Shown piece by piece: positions 1 to 10,365 of a DNA stretch of 64,000 bases. The translations under genes and the position numbers were made by a program. Where the stretch lies: assembly GCF_988243305.1 (NCBI RefSeq), contig NZ_OZ547136.1, one strand, 5' to 3'. Position 1 is the stretch's first letter. Every line of letters begins with the position of its first letter. The notes beneath the pieces are model-generated. The model was not told the DNA's origin and searched no databases. It saw only the letters and a list, made by a program, of their open reading frames with translations.

Positions 1-234
1 TCGCTGGGATCACACTACACAATATTGAATATTGTTATTGATATATTGCCCACCTAGTATCGACCAAAAGAAAATATTTGTTACAGAGAAATACAAAAAA
101 TCTAAAACCAGTAAAAAATATTCATAACGATTATTATTAATACATTTTAATTCACAAAACAAATTTATTAGCACCACCTCAACAGTCGATATTCATCATT
201 ATTATATATTTGCGTTATATAAGGAGATATATCC

Positions 235-2031
235 ATGTTTGATAAATATAGAAAAACTCTGGTAGCCGGAGCTGTGGCGATAACTCTGGGTTTGTCAGCA
301 CCGGGGGTGATGGCAGCAGGTTTTAAACCCGCACCACCTGCCGGGCAACTGGGTGCGGTCATTGTCGATCCCTACGGCAATGCACCACTGACCGCTTTGG
401 TTGACTTAGATAGCCATGTCATTTCTGATGTCAAAGTTACCGTCCATGGGAAGGGCGAAAAAGGCGTAGAAATCAGCTATCCCGTGGGTCAGGAATCACT
501 AAAAACTTATGATGGTGTACCGATTTTTGGTCTTTATCAGAAATTTGCTAACAAAGTGACCGTTGAGTGGAAAGAAAACGGCAAGGTCATGAAAGATGAT
601 TATGTGGTGCACACTTCGGCCATCGTCAATAATTACATGGATAACCGCTCTATCTCCGATTTACAACAGACCAAAGTTATTAAAGTCGCACCGGGTTTTG
701 AAGATCGCCTCTATCTGGTTAATACCCACACCTTTACCGCCCAAGGTTCCGATCTCCACTGGCATGGTGAGAAAGATAAAAATGCCGGTATCCTTGATGC
801 GGGTCCGGCAACCGGTGCACTCCCTTTTGATATCGCGCCATTCACCTTTATCGTCGATACGGAAGGCGAATACCGCTGGTGGTTGGATCAAAACACCTTC
901 TACGATGGTCGTGACCGCGATATCAACAAGCGTGGTTATCTGATGGGTATCCGCGAAACACCACGCGGCACCTTTACCGCTGTACAAGGTCAGCACTGGT
1001 ACGAGTTCGACATGATGGGGCAGGTGCTCGAAGATCACAAACTACCGCGCGGATTTGCTGACGCCACTCATGAGTCCATTGAGACGCCTAATGGCACAGT
1101 ATTGTTGCGCGTAGGTAAGAGCAATTACCGTCGCGATGACGGCGTACACGTCACCACCATTCGTGACCATATCCTCGAAGTCGATAAATCTGGTCGCGTT
1201 GTCGATGTATGGGATCTGACCAAGATCCTCGATCCGAAACGCGATGCACTGCTCGGCGCGCTGGATGCAGGTGCAGTTTGCGTTAACGTTGACCTTGCCC
1301 ATGCAGGACAACAGGCAAAACTGGAACCAGATACACCGTTCGGCGACGCGCTGGGTGTAGGGCCAGGTCGTAACTGGGCGCACGTTAACTCAATCGCCTA
1401 TGACGCAAAAGATGACTCAATCATCCTCTCCTCTCGCCACCAGGGTGTTGTGAAAATTGGTCGTGATAAGCAAGTGAAATGGATCCTTGCGCCCTCTAAA
1501 GGTTGGGAAAAACCGCTGGCCAGCAAGCTGCTGAAACCGGTTGATGCTAACGGTAAGCCAATTACCTGTAACGAAAATGGCCTGTGCGAAAACTCAGACT
1601 TCGACTTTACCTACACCCAGCATACCGCCTGGATTTCCAGCAAAGGAACGCTCACCATTTTTGATAATGGCGATGGGCGTCATCTGGAACAACCTGCCTT
1701 ACCAACCATGAAATACTCCCGCTTTGTGGAATATAAGATTGATGAGAAGAAAGGCACCGTTCAGCAAGTGTGGGAATACGGTAAAGAACGTGGCTACGAT
1801 TTCTATAGCCCGATTACCTCCATCATTGAATATCAAGCCGACCGTAACACCATGTTTGGCTTCGGTGGTTCTATTCATTTGTTCGATGTCGGGCAGCCAA
1901 CCGTCGGTAAGTTGAACGAAATCGATTACAAAACCAAAGAAGTGAAAGTGGAAATCGACGTGCTGTCAGATAAACCCAATCAGACTCACTATCGTGCACT
2001 GTTAGTCCGTCCACAACAGATGTTCAAATAA
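235..2031 (+). CDS. assT: Arylsulfate sulfotransferase, periplasmic (598 aa)
   Basis: ATG at 235 preceded by AAGGAG; N-terminal signal-peptide-like segment (..ITLGLSAPGVMAAG); length and sequence match AssT as recalled from uropathogenic E. coli; followed by dsbL-dsbI as in the known tricistronic operon. Confidence 0.85.
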   Translation: MFDKYRKTLVAGAVAITLGLSAPGVMAAGFKPAPPAGQLGAVIVDPYGNAPLTALVDLDSHVISDVKVTVHGKGEKGVEISYPVGQESLKTYDGVPIFGLYQKFANKVTVEWKENGKVMKDDYVVHTSAIVNNYMDNRSISDLQQTKVIKVAPGFEDRLYLVNTHTFTAQGSDLHWHGEKDKNAGILDAGPATGALPFDIAPFTFIVDTEGEYRWWLDQNTFYDGRDRDINKRGYLMGIRETPRGTFTAVQGQHWYEFDMMGQVLEDHKLPRGFADATHESIETPNGTVLLRVGKSNYRRDDGVHVTTIRDHILEVDKSGRVVDVWDLTKILDPKRDALLGALDAGAVCVNVDLAHAGQQAKLEPDTPFGDALGVGPGRNWAHVNSIAYDAKDDSIILSSRHQGVVKIGRDKQVKWILAPSKGWEKPLASKLLKPVDANGKPITCNENGLCENSDFDFTYTQHTAWISSKGTLTIFDNGDGRHLEQPALPTMKYSRFVEYKIDEKKGTVQQVWEYGKERGYDFYSPITSIIEYQADRNTMFGFGGSIHLFDVGQPTVGKLNEIDYKTKEVKVEIDVLSDKPNQTHYRALLVRPQQMFK

Positions 2032-2048
2032 TTAAGAAGGGAATAAAA

Positions 2049-2717
2049 ATGTCGAAATTAGGGATCTCATCACTATTTAAAACCATACTGCTTACCGCAG
2101 CTTTGGCTGTTTCATTTACCGCTTCTGCATTTACCGAAGGCACGGATTACATGGTTCTGGAAAAACCTATTCCGAATGCCGACAAAACGCTGATTAAGGT
2201 ATTTAGCTACGCCTGCCCGTTCTGTTACAAGTACGACAAAGCGGTTACCGGTCCGGTATCGGAAAAAGTGAAAGATATCGTTGCTTTTACTCCATTCCAT
2301 CTGGAAACAAAAGGTGAATACGGCAAACAAGCAAGCGAAGTCTTTGCGGTCTTGATCAATAAAGATAAAGCAGCAGGTATTTCATTATTTGATGCTAACT
2401 CTCAGTTTAAGAAAGCCAAGTTTGCTTATTACGCGGCTTATCATGACAAAAAAGAACGCTGGTCTGATGGTAAAGATCCGGCTGCCTTTATCAAAACCGG
2501 ACTGGACGCCGCAGGTATGAGTCAGGCCGATTTTGAAGCCGCGCTGAAAGAGCCTGCAGTTCAGGAAACGCTGGAAAAATGGAAAGCCTCTTATGAAGTT
2601 GCAAAAATCCAGGGCGTTCCGGCGTATGTCGTCAATGGTAAATACCTGATCTACACCAAGAGTATTAAATCTATTGACTCAATGGCAGACCTTATCCGCG
2701 AGTTAGCAAGCAAATAA
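2049..2717 (+). CDS. dsbL: Periplasmic thiol:disulfide oxidoreductase, DsbA paralogue (222 aa)
   Basis: Signal peptide plus CPFC thioredoxin-type active-site motif in translation; position immediately after assT. Confidence 0.85.
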
Positions 2718-2731
2718 CAGGGAAACAGGCT

Positions 2732-3403
2732 ATGGGTATTAAGGGAATGTGGAAAGACCTTCGCACTTCACCGGTGGACACGCTGGTAAGATGGCAAGAA
2801 CAACGTTTTTTGTGGTTGTTAATGGCCATTGCGATGGGCGCGTTAATTATCCTGGCGCACTCTTTCTTCCAGATCTATCTCTACATGGCACCCTGTGAGC
2901 AATGTGTATACATTCGCTACGCCATGTTTGTGATGGTTATTGGAGGATTGGTTGCAGCGATCAACCCAAAGAACATCATCCTAAAGCTAATTGGCTGCGT
3001 GATGGCATTTTACGGCAGCATTTTGGGACTGAAGTTTTCGCTCAAACTGAACGATATCCACCATGCAGTACATAATCCGGATCCCGATTCACTGTTTGGC
3101 GTACAGGGTTGCTCTACCGATCCAACTTTTCCCTTTAACCTGCCGCTGGCACAGTGGGCACCAAATTGGTTCAAGCCTACCGGGGATTGCGGCTATGACG
3201 CCCCAATCGTTCCTGATGGCGTCACACTGAGCAGCATGCAACAGTGGTTTGTGGAAATGTATCAGCAATCTGAAGGCTGGTATCTGCTACCACCATGGCA
3301 TTTTATGAATATGGCTCAGGCTTGTATGCTGGCTTTTGGTATGTGTCTGGTGCTGCTGGTCATTATGAGTGGCGCATGGGCGCTTAAAATCATCAGAGGC
3401 TAA
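2732..3403 (+). CDS. dsbI: Inner-membrane disulfide oxidoreductase, DsbB paralogue (223 aa)
   Basis: Multi-pass membrane protein with paired cysteines (CEQC), third gene of the assT operon. Confidence 0.8.
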
Positions 3404-3448
3404 CTCAGCAACACCCAAAGCCAGTCATTCTGGCTTCGGGTTCTTTTA

Positions 3449-4237
3449 TTAACCTATCTGCACCGACAGCATACTTAAACTGCCCATCTCTATGCCATCA
3501 ACCGGAACAGTCACCGGCTCCTGACCATCCCACGCACCTAATACATACAACAGTGGCAGAAAGTGTTCCGGTGTTGGGTTCGATAACGCCCCTCCTTCAT
3601 GGTCGAGGTAATTCACCAGAGGATGCTGCTCTACCGGCCCTTGCCACGTCAGATTCGCTTTCACATACTCATTAAACGACATCGCCCACGGATACGGTGA
3701 ACTATCACCGTGCCACTTCACTGTGCGCAGGTTATGTACCACGTTACCGCTGGCGACCAACATTATTCCTTCATCTCGCAGCGCTGCCAGTTTACGCCCC
3801 ATCTCAAGGTGCCAGGCGGCGGGTTTGGTGCTATCAATACTTAACTGCACCATCGGGATATCCGCTTGCGGATACATCTTAATCAGCACGCCCCACGAGC
3901 CGTGGTCAAAGCCCCAGGCTTCTTTATCCAGCGTCACCGGGACCGGCGCTAACAGCTCAACCAGATGCTGTGCCAGCGCAGGCGAACCCGGAGCAGGATA
4001 ATGCGTGTCGTACAGCGCCTGCGGGAAGCCACCAAAGTCATGAATCGTGGGCGGCGTCTCCATCGCGGTCACTCCTGTTCCACGGGTAAACCAGTGAGCC
4101 GAAACCACCACAATCGCTTGCGGGCGTGGCAATGTCATCCCCAACTTCTGCCAGCTGCGGGTATACAAATTATCTTCCAGCACGTTCATCGGACTACCGT
4201 GACCTAAAAACAATGCTGGCATACGTGTTGAAGACAT
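3449..4237 (-). CDS. ygiD: Class III extradiol dioxygenase-like protein (DOPA-dioxygenase family), 262 aa
   Basis: Translation MSSTRMPALFLGHGSPMN...; ORF-track start at 4264 is further upstream, ATG at 4237 chosen to match the known 262-aa length. Confidence 0.8.
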   Translation of the reverse strand: MSSTRMPALFLGHGSPMNVLEDNLYTRSWQKLGMTLPRPQAIVVVSAHWFTRGTGVTAMETPPTIHDFGGFPQALYDTHYPAPGSPALAQHLVELLAPVPVTLDKEAWGFDHGSWGVLIKMYPQADIPMVQLSIDSTKPAAWHLEMGRKLAALRDEGIMLVASGNVVHNLRTVKWHGDSSPYPWAMSFNEYVKANLTWQGPVEQHPLVNYLDHEGGALSNPTPEHFLPLLYVLGAWDGQEPVTVPVDGIEMGSLSMLSVQIG

Positions 4238-4379
4238 GATGATATCCTTAACTAAAGGTGTCATTTTGATATCCTCACAATACGCTTGTTCGGCGGAGTA
4301 AGAACCCGGATAACAATGATGATGATCATCAGTTATTTTGACGATCTGCCTGAAGGTGAAGATTTATAAGGAGTTGTCG

Positions 4380-5153: not shown

Positions 5154-5163
5154 AAACAACATC

Positions 5164-5192
5164 AGAAGTTGTCCAGCGCATGGACAACTTCT
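5164..5192. terminator. Perfect 12-bp inverted repeat (AGAAGTTGTCCA/TGGACAACTTCT, 5-nt loop), probable bidirectional terminator
   Basis: Read directly in sequence between convergent zupT and the small minus-strand ORF. Confidence 0.6.
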
Positions 5193-5210
5193 GCCAGCTT
5201 CACGAAAGCC

Positions 5211-5381
5211 TTATTCTACCTTTTCGGCTGTCTCTTCTCTCGTACTGTTTAAGTATTTGTTCCGCGCTTCAAGCAGTGCGTCTCTGTCCTGGCGAAACGC
5301 CCGACAATAACGTTTCAAATGCAGGAAATAACCCACCACAACCAGAGCAATCAATACAATCCAGTACCAGGCGATAAACAT
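5211..5381 (-). CDS. Small single-pass membrane protein (56 aa), hypothetical
   Basis: ATG at 5381 preceded by AAGGGTAAAAGG; one hydrophobic helix (FIAWYWIVLIALVVVGYFL) followed by a charged tail; ends at the bidirectional terminator. Confidence 0.45.
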   Translation of the reverse strand: MFIAWYWIVLIALVVVGYFLHLKRYCRAFRQDRDALLEARNKYLNSTREETAEKVE

Positions 5382-5642
5382 CCTTTTACCCTTAATATTT
5401 AACAATACTAAACATTTAGCGCATAAATTTCACATATCCTTTTTCGGATATATTCATATGGTCGCATAATAACGGAACAATTATATGATTTTGATCATAA
5501 TGAAAAAGAATGCCTGATATTAATGAAATTTTCTCATAGAAAGAGAAGCGGAATTAACATCTTGCATAGCAGGGAAAAATAAAAACCGAAGCCTGCTACA
5601 ACTTCGGTTTCTTGATTAAGGCAGTAAATTAAGCAGCGGTTT

Positions 5643-6296
5643 TCAGCTGGCTTTACGCTCATGTGCCTGACGATAAGCCACCAGGTCTTCAATAGTCACG
5701 AGCGCCATATTGTGTTTATTGGCAAACTCAATGCACTCTGGTGCACGCGCCATCGTGCCATCGTCATTAGTCAGCTCACACAGCACACCAGCCGGTTTAA
5801 AGCCTGCCAGCGTCATCAGATCAATAGTCGCTTCAGTATGGCCGCCACGCGTCAGTACACCACCAGCCTGAGCGCGAAGTGGGAAAACGTGGCCCGGGCG
5901 ATTCAGATCAGAAGGTTTTGCGTCATCGGCAATCGCTGCGCGAACGGTCATAATACGGTCAGCGGCAGAAACACCGGTAGTCACACCTTCAGCCGCTTCA
6001 ATGGTCACGGTAAAACCGGTGCCATAGGCGCTGGTGTTATTTTCTACCATCATTGGCAGATCAAGTTGTTTACGGCGATCTTCAGTAATGCACAGGCAAA
6101 CAATACCGCTACCGTGGCGAATGGTCAGCGCCATCTGCTCAACGGTCATGGTTTCTGCCGGGAAGATCATATCGCCTTCGTTTTCACGGTCTTCATCATC
6201 AAGCACCATTACACCGCGTCCTTCACGCAGCGCAGCCAGTGCATTTTCAACACGTTCGAAAGGCGTACCAAAAGAGGAAAGTAGCGTCTGATTCAT
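5643..6296 (-). CDS. ribB: 3,4-dihydroxy-2-butanone 4-phosphate synthase (217 aa)
   Basis: Translation matches RibB full length; upstream FMN riboswitch. Confidence 0.95.
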
Positions 6297-6540
6297 GGTA
6301 AAAAAACCTCACTAAAATTATGGTTACCAGAATCAGGGCAGTCTTAGGAGTGGCGGCATATAGCCAAAATAACGTGAGCGGGTCCATGCCCGACAGAATC
6401 GTTACTCTCTCCCATCCGGACTCTAACCGTCGGCCCCGGAATTACACCGGATCTGCTGTCCTTTGAGTTCGCACCCAAAGCGCTCGCGGGCTTTCAACTG
6501 AGTTGATTTACCGCCGGTGGGGAATTTCGCCCCGCCCTGA
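6297..6540 (-). ncRNA. sroG: FMN riboswitch (RFN element / sroG) in the ribB leader
   Basis: Minus-strand sequence contains the conserved RFN core (AGGGCGGGGCGAAATTCCCCACCGGCGGTAAATCAACTCAGTTGAAAGCCCGCGAGCGCTTTGGGTGCGAACTCAAAGGACAGCAGATCCGGTGTAATTCCGGGGCCGACGGTTAGAGTCCGGATGGGAGAG) at about 6400-6538. Confidence 0.9.
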
Positions 6541-6669
6541 GAATAAGCGGATTCACTATAACGCTAATGATTAGCGGCAGCAACGCATAGCTTCACATAA
6601 TTCTGGTTTATGACTTACCCTTATCGCACTACAATGGCACTCAACACCTATCAGTACAGGGAAACTACA

Positions 6670-6969
6670 ATGATTGACCCGAAAAAAATTGAGCAAATCG
6701 CTCGCCAGGTTCACGAATCAATGCCTAAAGGAATCAGGGAGTTCGGGGAAGATGTGGAGAAAAAAATCCGCCAAACCCTACAAGCGCAGCTGACGCGTCT
6801 CGATCTGGTAAGCCGCGAAGAATTCGACGTTCAGACGCAAGTCCTGTTACGGACTCGTGAAAAACTGGCGTTACTGGAGCAGCGCATCAGTGAACTGGAA
6901 GCGCGCAATAATTCGGTAGCAGATCTTCAATCTCCTCCGGCTATCCCGCCTATTGATAAAGCAGAATAA
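6670..6969 (+). CDS. ubiK: Ubiquinone biosynthesis accessory factor UbiK (YqiC), coiled-coil protein (99 aa)
   Basis: Translation [16 protein letters not shown]... with leucine-zipper-like C-terminus; ORF-track start at 6610 is upstream of the known start. Confidence 0.8.
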
Positions 6970-6982
6970 AGCAACACAAAAA

Positions 6983-6999
6983 CGGGCCAGACGGCCCGT
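6983..6999. terminator. Short GC hairpin (CGGGCC-AGAC-GGCCCG) between convergent ubiK and glgS
   Basis: Inverted repeat read in sequence. Confidence 0.5.
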
Positions 7000-7003
7000 A
7001 ATA

Positions 7004-7204
7004 TCAGTGTTCTAATTCAAGTTCTCTGGTTTGCATCATCTGTTGGCAATACCAGGCATAACGTGCGCAAAACCAGGTTCTATGTTCTTCATCCATGTTA
7101 CCAGTAACGGCCAGAATATCGACCGGGCGACCTTCTGCGTGCATTCTGGCAAAACTACGCGCCAGGAAATCGAAATTATTTAAAGAATTAAGACTATGAT
7201 CCAT
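7004..7204 (-). CDS. glgS: Glycogen synthesis / surface-composition regulator GlgS (66 aa)
   Basis: Translation [36 protein letters not shown]... Confidence 0.9.
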
Positions 7205-7473
7205 AAGCACATCCTCCGGTTATCGCATACCTTTTAAGGCCATATGCTTTTTCTGATTTCAGTATTCCCCAATCAGTGTAGTGCCTTTAAACATAACGTG
7301 CGTAAATATATTGTCCCCGATCACACTTTTTAGTGAAAAAATAAAAAACCATATTAAAAGACTATCTCTTCCAGAACTTATCTAACATGTGTTATTATTA
7401 ACAAAGATAAATGTAAGCAAGGAAACTATCCCAAAGTAAATATTGCGTCACTAAATGGACATTGGAGTGACAT

Positions 7474-8103
7474 ATGATTTTATTCGCCGACTATAACACC
7501 CCTTATCTTTTCGCTATTTCCTTTGTACTGTTGATCGGCCTTTTAGAAATTTTTGCGCTTATCTGCGGTCACATGATCTCCGGTGCACTTGATGCACATC
7601 TTGACCATTATGATTCCATAACCACAGGTCATATTAGCCAGGCACTTCATTATCTCAATATCGGAAGATTGCCAGCTCTCGTCGTTCTTTGCTTACTGGC
7701 TGGTTTTTTTGGTCTTATTGGCATCCTGTTGCAGCATGCCTGCCTCATGGTCTGGCAATCACCACTTTCGAACCTGTTCGTGGTTCCTGTCAGTTTACTG
7801 TTTACGATTATTGCGGTGCATTATACCGGTAAAATAGTTGCGCCCTGGATTCCACGCGACCATAGTTCAGCTATTACAGAAGAAGAATATATTGGTAGCA
7901 TGGCATTAATTACCGGTCATCAAGCCACTTCAGGTAATCCCTGCGAAGGAAAACTCACCGATCAATTTGGCCAAATACATTATTTACTACTGGAGCCTGA
8001 AGAAGGAAAAATTTTCACTAAAGGAGACAAAGTGTTAATTATTTGCCGACTTTCTGCAACGCGATATTTGGCGGAAAACAATCCCTGGCCCCAAATATTG
8101 TAA
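7474..8103 (+). CDS. yqiJ: NfeD-like inner membrane protein (209 aa)
   Basis: ATG with GGAG RBS; hydrophobic N-terminal half plus soluble C-terminal domain; upstream partner of SPFH protein YqiK. Confidence 0.85.
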
Positions 8104-8129
8104 TTTATTAATCAAAAGGAAATTTAATA

Positions 8130-9791
8130 ATGGATGATATTGTTAATTCTGTGCCCTCCTGGATGTTTACTGCGATTATTGCCGTATGCATTCTGTTTAT
8201 TATTGGAATTATTTTCGCCAGGCTCTATCGTCGCGCTTCGGCAGAGCAAGCTTTTGTTCGTACTGGTTTAGGTGGGCAAAAAGTGGTAATGAGCGGTGGC
8301 GCAATCGTGATGCCGATCTTTCATGAAATAATCCCCATCAATATGAATACTCTGAAGCTGGAAGTCAGCCGCTCAACCATTGATAGCCTGATTACGAAAG
8401 ATCGTATGCGCGTCGATGTAGTAGTCGCTTTCTTTGTGCGGGTAAAACCGTCAGTGGAAGGTATTGCCACCGCCGCCCAGACGCTGGGGCAACGCACCCT
8501 GTCGCCTGAAGACTTACGTATGTTGGTTGAAGATAAATTTGTCGATGCCCTCCGTGCAACAGCTGCACAAATGACCATGCATGAGTTACAGGATACCCGC
8601 GAGAACTTCGTGCAGGGCGTACAAAATACCGTAGCTGAAGATCTGTCGAAAAATGGCCTGGAACTGGAAAGCGTTTCACTTACCAACTTTAACCAGACGT
8701 CGAAAGAACATTTCAATCCTAACAACGCCTTTGACGCCGAAGGTTTAACCAAGCTGACGCAGGAGACGGAGCGCCGTCGTCGCGAACGTAACGAAGTTGA
8801 ACAGGATGTAGAAGTTGCGGTGCGTGAGAAAAACCGTGATGCGCTTTCGCGGAAGCTAGAGATTGAACAACAAGAAGCGTTTATGACGCTTGAGCAGGAG
8901 CAGCAGGTTAAAACCCGTACCGCTGAGCAGAATGCGAAAATTGCGGCTTTTGAGGCCGAGCGTCGTCGGGAAGCAGAGCAGACGCGAATTCTGGCTGAAC
9001 GACAGATTCAGGAAACGGAAATCGACCGCGAACAGGCCGTCCGTTCCAGAAAAGTTGAAGCTGAACGTGAAGTTCGCATTAAAGAGATCGAACAGCAGCA
9101 GGTCACCGAAATCGCTAACCAGACGAAATCGATCGCTATTGCCGCCAAATCGGAACAACAGTCCCAGGCAGAAGCGCGTGCTAACCTTGCACTTGCAGAA
9201 GCGGTAAGCGCCCAGCAAAACGTAGAAACAACTCGCCAGACCGCAGAAGCCGATCGTGCTAAACAAGTTGCCCTAATCGCTGCCGCGCAGGATGCAGAAA
9301 CCAAAGCGGTTGAACTGACCGTGCGGGCGAAAGCAGAGAAAGAAGCCGCAGAGATGCAGGCGGCGGCAATCGTTGAGTTAGCCGAAGCTACGCGTAAAAA
9401 GGGTTTGGCGGAAGCAGAAGCGCAACGTGCGCTGAACGACGCTATCAACGTACTTTCTGATGAACAAACCAGCCTTAAATTCAAACTGGCGCTATTACAG
9501 TCGTTACCTGCAGTAATAGAGAAATCCGTTGAGCCGATGAAGTCTATCGACGGCATCAAGATTATTCAGGTCGATGGATTAAACCGAGGTGGTGCTGCGG
9601 GGGATGCGGCATCAGGCAGCGTTAGTGGCGGAAACCTGGCAGAACAGGCATTATCAGCCGCACTCTCTTACCGCACACAGGCACCACTGATTGACTCCTT
9701 GCTCAATGAAATTGGCGTTTCAGGCGGCTCACTGGCTGCATTGACTTCACCCTTAACCTCAACAACTCCCGTCGCAGAAAACGTAGAATAA
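8130..9791 (+). CDS. yqiK: SPFH/band-7 (flotillin-like) membrane protein with long Ala/Glu/Gln-rich coiled coil (553 aa)
   Basis: N-terminal TM segment, SPFH-like region, then extended AEAERR-type heptad-rich segment. Confidence 0.85.
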   Translation: MDDIVNSVPSWMFTAIIAVCILFIIGIIFARLYRRASAEQAFVRTGLGGQKVVMSGGAIVMPIFHEIIPINMNTLKLEVSRSTIDSLITKDRMRVDVVVAFFVRVKPSVEGIATAAQTLGQRTLSPEDLRMLVEDKFVDALRATAAQMTMHELQDTRENFVQGVQNTVAEDLSKNGLELESVSLTNFNQTSKEHFNPNNAFDAEGLTKLTQETERRRRERNEVEQDVEVAVREKNRDALSRKLEIEQQEAFMTLEQEQQVKTRTAEQNAKIAAFEAERRREAEQTRILAERQIQETEIDREQAVRSRKVEAEREVRIKEIEQQQVTEIANQTKSIAIAAKSEQQSQAEARANLALAEAVSAQQNVETTRQTAEADRAKQVALIAAAQDAETKAVELTVRAKAEKEAAEMQAAAIVELAEATRKKGLAEAEAQRALNDAINVLSDEQTSLKFKLALLQSLPAVIEKSVEPMKSIDGIKIIQVDGLNRGGAAGDAASGSVSGGNLAEQALSAALSYRTQAPLIDSLLNEIGVSGGSLAALTSPLTSTTPVAENVE

Positions 9792-9989
9792 ATTTTCAAC
9801 TATGAACATCCCTGGCCCAAAAAGCCGGGGATTCTTTATATCTGCGTTCCGATAAAAAGTGCAAATGATCGGGCTGTTGCAGCATTTTGCGTGACCGCTC
9901 GGGGAAGGCAAAACTGCCTCTGGGTAAGCATTGCGCGGGGTCCGGCGTTCATCAACAATCGGGAAGTCAGCAAGGGGCTGAAACGGGAA

Positions 9990-10135
9990 AGCCCCTCCCG
10001 AAGAAGGGGCCTTGTATAAGGAAAGGGTTATGATGAAGCTCATCATCATACTGATTGTGTTGTTACTGATAAGTTTCCACGCTTACTAACAGCCAATCAG
10101 AGGGGGGAGAAATCCTCCCTCACCCTTGTTCCTTT
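9990..10135 (-). ncRNA. sibD: Sib antisense sRNA (antitoxin) overlapping the first ibs ORF; boundaries approximate
   Basis: Established knowledge that Sib RNAs of ~110-150 nt are encoded fully antisense to ibs; ends not determinable from sequence alone. Confidence 0.45.
10030..10089 (+). CDS. ibsD: Ibs-family type I toxin, 19-aa hydrophobic peptide (MMKLIIILIVLLLISFHAY)
   Basis: ORF read directly; fits the Ibs peptide family; location between yqiK and hldE as for ibsD/ibsE in K-12; D versus E assignment is by order only. Confidence 0.75.
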   Translation: MMKLIIILIVLLLISFHAY

Positions 10136-10365
10136 ACTTTAGGTTGAAAAAAAATCAGCGTCAAGAAGGTTTCATTAACACATATTCCTGGCCCAAAAAG
10201 CCGGGGATTTTTTATATCTGCATTCCGCAAAAAACTGCAAATGCTCAGGTCGTTGCAGCCTTTTGCGTGACCGCTCGGGGAAGGGAAAACTGCCTCTGGG
10301 AAAGCGTTGCGCGAGGTCCGGCGCTCATCAACAATCGGGGAGTCAGCAGGGGGCTGAAACGGGAA

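Follow-up and report, generated by a model that had tools for sequence, protein, structure and literature searches.

An intact copy of the known assT-dsbL-dsbI operon between ygiC and ygiD

We analyzed a 64,000-nucleotide stretch of DNA from contig NZ_OZ547136.1 of assembly GCF_988243305.1 (hereafter the window) and found that three genes near its start, assT, dsbL, and dsbI, are an intact copy of the known operon for an arylsulfate sulfotransferase (ASST) and its disulfide-bond pair. An earlier note, made from the sequence alone, had proposed a three-gene operon at 235-3403 that encodes AssT, a DsbA paralogue, and a DsbB paralogue. The coordinates of the open reading frames (ORFs) and the Pfam and equivalog matches agree with this, and the locus is correctly located and named. 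The system is already known and is present here in an unremarkable intact state. Our preferred explanation as a whole, to which we assign a probability of about 0.93, is an intact operon that would work by the published mechanism, be transcribed as one unit from a silenced leader, and be carried as a non-mobile cassette.

An intact operon for a periplasmic sulfotransferase

The domain and equivalog matches are far beyond chance. AssT contains the Pfam domains Arylsulfotrans (PF05935, E = 1.1e-135; a beta-propeller) and Arylsulfotran_N (PF17425, E = 9.2e-29; N-terminal and Ig-like), DsbL contains the thioredoxin-fold domain DSBA (PF01323, E = 5.5e-13), and DsbI contains the DsbB domain (Pfam, E = 1.1e-23). 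DsbI passes the NCBIfam DsbI equivalog NF003304 with 418.9 bits (cut-off 212), the match spanning residues 3-222 of 223. Both partner proteins score below the NCBIfam equivalog cut-offs of the housekeeping pair: 78.3 vs. 279 and 60 vs. 290 bits for DsbL against DsbA, and 84.6 vs. 157 bits for DsbI against DsbB. They are therefore paralogues of DsbA and DsbB.

Residue by residue, AssT and DsbL are 1 and 2 differences away from the crystallized proteins of strain CFT073. Mature AssT (residues 28-598, 571 amino acids) differs from 3ELQ only by N220 for D, over a full-length match of 1336 bits, and DsbL is identical to 3C7M at 193 of 195 residues. The crystallized mature AssT chain begins at residue 28, and the 27 residues that precede it in our ORF form a hydrophobic leader; AssT is predicted to be periplasmic by way of this cleavable signal peptide. 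His436, His252, His356, Asn358, Arg374, Thr501, Cys418, and Cys424 of AssT are all retained at the matching precursor positions. DsbL has the active site C56-P-F-C59 and the cis-Pro loop V190-P191; it also matches the Salmonella DsbL structure 3L9U (E = 1e-121), and its matches to DsbA structures have E values of about 1e-12. For DsbI, which has no solved structure, the comparison was made by alignment of the Cys pairs with DsbB: Cys55/Cys58 and Cys127/Cys153 align with the cysteine pairs of that protein. With hydrophobic segments at about residues 23-53, 57-79, 81-104, and 190-223, DsbI would have a four-helix membrane topology that places the cysteine pairs in periplasmic loops.

According to a 2026 review (PMC13426309), AssT acts in the periplasm as a homodimer and passes sulfuryl groups from one phenolic compound to another with no need of 3'-phosphoadenosine 5'-phosphosulfate (PAPS). 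The reaction follows a ping-pong course in which His436 is transiently sulfated; His252, His356, Asn358, Arg374, and Thr501 hold the sulfuryl group, and AssT requires DsbL and DsbI for an essential disulfide (PMC13426309). The proteins of the window would work in the same manner. AssT would be exported by its Sec signal peptide and, in the periplasm, would transfer the sulfuryl group of a phenolic sulfate ester to a second phenol independently of PAPS, in a ping-pong reaction via a transient sulfo-His436 intermediate. DsbL, with its CPFC active site, would introduce the single disulfide of AssT (Cys418-Cys424), and membrane-bound DsbI, with its two presumed periplasmic Cys pairs, would reoxidize DsbL. 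By analogy with DsbB, DsbI presumably hands the electrons to quinones.

All three genes are under purifying selection. Against four Escherichia coli alleles and the alignable Escherichia relatives, the ratio of nonsynonymous to synonymous divergence (dN/dS) is 0.019-0.058 for assT, 0.013-0.028 for dsbL, and 0.045-0.138 for dsbI; restricted to the two B2-type alleles of E. coli, the comparison gives 0.013-0.076 over the three genes. The operon values lie within the range of the flanking core genes.

Chromosomal context and the empty site in K-12

Positions 1-3416 of the window match E. coli strain C4, isolated from a cow, without a difference; position 3417 is a mismatch, scattered differences begin at 5575, and the glgS-yqiJ intergenic region has an indel near 7341. 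With a 20-kb core query, strains such as MS 69-1 and 042 are among the top matches listed, at 98.0%-98.6% identity, the rows listed containing no record at ≥99%; this result does not place the host in a phylogroup. Upstream of where the window begins, C4 carries ygiC. On the other side the neighbor is ygiD, and because this gene lies on the minus strand, convergent with the operon, the earlier description of the operon as upstream of ygiD is positional and not transcriptional.

The earlier note stated that K-12 lacks the operon, and the junction there bears this out. In K-12 MG1655 ygiC and ygiD are only 37 bp apart, and the spacer is a small, GC-rich palindrome or hairpin resembling a repetitive extragenic palindromic (REP) element (CCGGATGGC...GCCATCCGG). 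Chromosomes of the operon-bearing type have 3,698 bp at the site of this spacer, and in the alignment the two stop codons, that of ygiC and that of ygiD, form the borders of the difference. Each of the 21 non-carrier rows listed first matches the window at 3446 or 3449; this shared start indicates a single pair of breakpoints.

The GC content is 0.48-0.49 in assT and dsbI and 0.435 in dsbL, compared with 0.52 for the window, and GC content at third codon positions (GC3) is 0.43 in dsbL vs. 0.57-0.60 in the flanking genes. The annotation of the 20-kb C4 locus includes no integrase, insertion sequence (IS), or tRNA, and there are no bounding direct or inverted repeats, only short matches at chance level. 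The cassette would be a non-mobile accessory unit of the tolC-ribB neighborhood, present or absent with a single breakpoint pair, and probably transmitted by vertical descent and, through the core genes on either side, by homologous recombination.

Further along this neighborhood, the gap between yqiD and ribB (~5405-5643 in the window) holds a four-gene chaperone-usher fimbrial operon in B2-type strains and in 042; the window lacks this operon. Since the same gap also holds the Salmonella and Citrobacter assT cassette, it looks like a recurrent insertion spot. The adjacent gene yqiD has 76%-79% DNA identity in Citrobacter, Salmonella, and Intestinirhabdus; its B2-type allele, where DNA identity drops to about 80%, is annotated only as "hypothetical protein."

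Divergence among operon alleles

Synonymous divergence (dS) among the E. coli operon alleles is 0.09-0.29, with dsbL at 0.28-0.29. Among the neighbors, compared with the same species, dS is 0.23-0.32 for ygiD, 0.12-0.19 for ygiC, and 0.04-0.07 for tolC and ygiB. The operon dS exceeds that of tolC and ygiB, which indicates that the alleles are old rather than recent.

The divergence is unevenly distributed. A sliding comparison with a B2-type haplotype, for which we used strain FDAARGOS_1251 (a CFT073-type haplotype) and not CFT073 itself, shows a patch of 90%-93% identity that runs from the 3' end of dsbL into the 5' end of dsbI. Over the 3' two-thirds of ygiD (window 3449-4000), identity is about 89%-93% with each E. 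coli comparator; one of these is MLI106K1, a strain with a cassette that is otherwise close to identical to that of the window. Over ygiD-zupT, only seven of about 5,425 records reach at least 99% identity. Given that MLI106K1 also differs in ygiD, the ygiD patch is confined to a few genomes, and it resembles a short segment imported by recombination.

Distribution in E. coli and Escherichia

The operon occurs in 1,508 (27.8%) of 5,426 complete E. coli genomes, with coverage of 80% or more in every carrier; of its 1,510 places, 1,509 are chromosomal. One of the places that match the operon and ygiD-zupT belongs to a record with a plasmid label, and a single genome contributes two places; a mislabeled replicon or a duplication could be responsible. 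The window belongs to an allele class of 260 genomes that are at least 99% identical to it. A class at about 97% includes CFT073 (coding DNA, 97.1%), Nissle 1917, NC101, and clone D i2, and a class at about 95.8% comprises ST131. Two copies stand out among the 60 carriers listed: In strain M15 (NZ_CP185789.1, 2637795-2642276) assT is split by an IS3-family transposase, the sole IS-disrupted copy, and the KP63 copy matches only to query position 3124 of 3169.

The association with extraintestinal pathogenic E. coli (ExPEC) that the earlier note stated is thus found in part. The operon is carried by classic B2 ExPEC lineages, by CFT073, NC101, and ST131, and by avian pathogenic E. coli (APEC) strains, but also by the enteroaggregative reference strain 042, by the probiotic Nissle 1917, and by strains from cow, horse, donkey, dog, chicken, soil, and wastewater. 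Outside E. coli it is present in E. whittamii, E. albertii (on a short contig), and Escherichia sp. MOD1-EC7003. Because carriers extend beyond the B2 ExPEC, the association is real but not exclusive. Statements in the literature that AssT and DsbLI occur only in uropathogens, or that commensal or enteric E. coli lack them (PMC13426309 among the sources), are too strong.

Leader, candidate promoter, and terminators

In strain C4 the spacer between ygiC and assT is 484 bp long with 26% GC; it begins directly behind the ygiC terminator, 250 bp outside the window. Since C4 is identical to the window over 1-3416, the window holds only the last 234 bp of this leader. An alignment of leaders from 12 taxa shows a block of ~70 nt (about window 1-62) that is common to Escherichia, Salmonella, Citrobacter, and Pseudocitrobacter and contains the candidate distal promoter of Table 1. 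In a second, proximal block the TATAAGGAGAT columns are kept in nearly all 12 taxa, and the majority of these columns are invariant. The candidate promoter is proposed from this cross-genus conservation only. A search of the leader and operon against Rfam returned no family at E ≤ 0.1.

Regulation of an assT-dsbL-dsbI cluster is documented only in Salmonella Typhi, where, according to a review, the cluster is repressed by H-NS and activated by LeuO. The two leader blocks are common to Salmonella enterica arizonae and Citrobacter. The 484-bp leader would drive the operon and is most likely a control region silenced by H-NS and relieved by LeuO, as we infer from the homology with S. Typhi and from the general affinity of H-NS for AT-rich DNA. 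The earlier note had read the AT-rich DNA before assT as a horizontally acquired promoter region. Its AT-richness is evident, but the locus has no hallmarks of a mobile element, and because the leader blocks are shared across genera, the composition is better explained as a regulatory property than as the trace of a recent import.

Both intergenic gaps (17 nt and 14 nt) contain a Shine-Dalgarno sequence. A hairpin terminator follows ygiC just outside the window, and another follows dsbI, with UUCUUUUAUU after its hairpin. In C4 the post-dsbI hairpin has a 12-bp stem and a U tract; in the window its folding energy is -17.5 kcal/mol (z = -5.7), and base 3417 introduces a single A.C mismatch. Both flanking terminators are strong, and neither gene junction, assT/dsbL or dsbL/dsbI, has a hairpin comparable to them. 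The three genes would form one transcription unit between the ygiC terminator and the terminator after dsbI.

Table 1. Features of the operon, its surroundings, and comparator loci
Feature	Location	Strand	Description
3' half of AT-rich assT leader	1-234	+	GC 0.275-0.30 over window 1-300
Candidate distal sigma-70 promoter	32-60	+	TTGTTA (32-37), 17 nt, TAGTAT (55-60); putative
Conserved proximal leader block	175-234	+	Shine-Dalgarno AAGGAG 221-226, 8 nt before ATG
assT	235-2031	+	598 aa, periplasmic PAPS-independent aryl-sulfate sulfotransferase precursor
AssT signal peptide (predicted)	codons 1-27 = 235-315	+	ends VMA/A
dsbL	2049-2717	+	222 aa, periplasmic DsbA-paralogue dithiol oxidase; begins 17 nt past assT stop
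dsbI	2732-3403	+	223 aa, inner-membrane DsbB-paralogue; begins 14 nt past dsbL stop
Intrinsic terminator	3413-3447	+	hairpin 3413-3441, then the tract given in the text; between dsbI and ygiD stops
ygiD	3449-4264	-	4,5-DOPA extradiol dioxygenase, convergent core-genome neighbor; stop codon is right-hand indel boundary
yqiD	5211-5405	-	
zupT/yqiD-ribB cassettes	loci L009, L011, L013, L018, about 6360-10270		corresponds to window 5154-5642
Fimbrial operon copies	L055 11955-16299; L057 11960-16296; L058 6422-11396		

Comparison with known systems

The closest studied system is that of CFT073 (AssT structures 3ELQ, 3ETS, and 3ETT; DsbL structure 3C7M), which has the same genes in the same order, at the same chromosomal site, with the same lengths and active-site residues. 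The CFT073 proteins were reportedly characterized by Grimshaw et al. and Malojcic et al. in 2008 (cited in PMC13426309). CFT073 is a uropathogenic E. coli (UPEC), whereas the host of the window is a close relative of a bovine isolate, and the B2-type haplotype (FDAARGOS_1251) differs from the window in the leader (74%-83% identity), in the dsbL/dsbI patch (90%-93%), and in ygiD (~90%).

Salmonella enterica (S. Typhi and S. Typhimurium; DsbL structure 3L9U) and Citrobacter also carry these three genes in the tolC-ribB neighborhood, with order and orientation unchanged. Their cassette proteins are 82%-89% identical to those of the window, the distal and proximal leader blocks are shared, and AssT is a native DsbL substrate in Salmonella according to the literature. 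However, the Salmonella and Citrobacter cassettes form a separate clade and lie at the zupT/yqiD-ribB site, whereas that of the window lies at ygiC-ygiD. With this different insertion site, the Salmonella cassette is not a strict positional orthologue, contrary to a statement in the literature.

More distantly, Campylobacter clusters (astA with dsb genes) have an ASST homologue with 40%-47% identity and, nearby, DsbA/DsbL-like (44%-65%) and DsbB/DsbI-like (51%-57%) proteins. They differ in gene order, in orientation, in extra DsbA copies, and in their far more distant sequences. In the set made up of Campylobacter metagenome-assembled genomes and C. showae (L024-L053), some loci have two ASST copies (L032 and L047). 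The linkage of the enzyme with its oxidases thus extends beyond the Enterobacterales, which suggests that it is widespread. DsbA and DsbB of K-12 have the same folds and the same thiol-disulfide relay logic as DsbL and DsbI; the active site of DsbL is CPFC and that of DsbA CPHC, and the literature describes a truncated groove and an electropositive surface for DsbL.

Cassette positions across genera and origin of the locus

The positions of the cassette were found by a scan of species-representative genomes, in which the S. enterica position rests on subsp. arizonae. The ygiC-ygiD site is occupied in E. coli, Escherichia sp. MOD1-EC7003, E. whittamii, and Pseudocitrobacter. At zupT/yqiD-ribB, two genes from the Escherichia site, it lies in the same orientation in Citrobacter, S. 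enterica arizonae, and Intestinirhabdus, and in Budviciaceae and Edwardsiella it is at other positions. In S. enterica subsp. enterica the cassette would correspond to STM3192-3194, likewise between zupT and ribB. In a neighbor-joining tree of the concatenated cassette proteins, the division follows the insertion site. The Pseudocitrobacter cassette is closest to that of Escherichia (88%-90%), yet its flank proteins are the most distant from those of Escherichia (about 90%, compared with 93%-95% for Citrobacter and Salmonella). As the tree carries no support values and the flanks are represented by two proteins, this grouping by site over flank is suggestive only. Budviciaceae cassettes are 81%-83% identical. 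Judged by this spread, the cassette appears to be old in the Enterobacteriaceae.

A possible cassette remnant in the zupT-ribB interval of E. coli was rejected, only yqiD being homologous there. In Citrobacter sp. On2M (L049, 3168-4040) there is an assT fragment of about half length and 63% identity between zupT and ribB, with no match to dsbL or dsbI, and this may be a decayed cassette.

Several histories could underlie the present distribution. One that we regard as possible, though short of even odds, is that ygiC-ygiD is an ancestral location in Escherichia from which K-12-type lineages lost the operon by one precise deletion, the empty allele now being predominant. It accommodates the occupation of the same site in E. 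coli, MOD1-EC7003, and E. whittamii, as well as the operon in E. albertii, and the one breakpoint (3446/3449) in 21 of 21 non-carriers listed fits a single event; one insertion, however, equally predicts a single breakpoint pair. The K-12 spacer resembles the empty ygiC-ygiD spacers of Salmonella, Citrobacter, and Intestinirhabdus, which are REP-like hairpins of the same kind, and this leans toward an ancestral empty site with an old insertion in Escherichia. Moreover, the scan gave no match in the representatives of E. fergusonii, E. marmotae, and E. ruysiae, with the proviso that pattern-based scans can miss loci. Tentative, and on balance doubtful, is a history of two deep site lineages, one at ygiC-ygiD (Escherichia and Pseudocitrobacter) and one at zupT/yqiD-ribB (Salmonella, Citrobacter, and Intestinirhabdus). 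The cassette phylogeny follows the site and not the flanks, which under such a history would mean relocation or homologous recombination between genera without a mobile element. It would be combined with at least two leader haplotypes in E. coli and with possible lineage-specific regulation; if it is true, the differing leader of B2 ExPEC could explain the link with uropathogens despite the wide occurrence of the enzyme.

A recent acquisition, by contrast, is largely refuted by the data. That the cassette and an AT-rich promoter were brought in together as an islet, by a mobile element or from a distant donor, might be suggested by the 26% GC of the leader, by the low GC (0.435) and GC3 (0.43) of dsbL relative to its flanks (0.57-0.60), and by the presence and absence of the operon within one species; the tree by site and the 81%-83% identity of the Budviciaceae cassettes even make lateral exchange plausible over long timescales. 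We nonetheless consider it improbable: The locus lacks an integrase, IS, tRNA, or bounding repeat, assT and dsbI are close in GC to the window, the same site is filled in at least three Escherichia species, operon dS (0.09-0.29) exceeds that of tolC and ygiB (0.04-0.07), and all operon places but one are chromosomal. More improbable still is that the operon is a relic, disused in a non-B2 host and drifting toward pseudogenes. The far-diverged leader, the base change that weakens the terminator stem, and the IS3-split assT of M15 are what one might cite for decay. Decay is contradicted by three full-length ORFs with intact catalytic residues, an AssT only one residue from the CFT073 enzyme despite 2%-4% nucleotide divergence, dN/dS values of 0.013-0.076, and coverage of at least 80% in 1,508 of 1,508 carriers.

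Discussion

An intact, selectively maintained operon of known mechanism, with a presumably silenced leader and no means of mobility of its own, remains our preferred explanation, and there are observations that weigh against it in some of its parts. The natural sulfuryl donor and acceptor of AssT are not known according to the review. Plasmid-expressed DsbLI partly restores the motility of a CFT073 dsbAB dsbLI mutant, which implies that DsbL is able to oxidize other substrates and that the word "dedicated," as applied to this pair, is relative. A strict sigma-70 scan of the leader found five promoter-like sites compared with 7.4 in shuffled sequences, that is, no excess, and the candidate promoter matches the consensus at eight of 12 positions, which is why it is missing from the list of that scan. 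Finally, the leader is only 74%-83% identical to the B2-type leader in the sliding comparison, so that regulation may not carry over from CFT073 or Salmonella.

As a discovery the locus matters little, since publications of 2008-2014 already cover the operon, its structures, and its mechanism. What the present analysis adds is a correction of the "UPEC-only" generalization, a two-site dimorphism of the cassette across genera, and strongly diverged leader haplotypes. Carriage by 27.8% of complete E. coli genomes bears on DsbL as an antivirulence target and on assT as an ExPEC marker. The combination of a conserved protein and a fast-diverging leader suggests that it may be regulation, rather than the presence of the enzyme, that varies between lineages.

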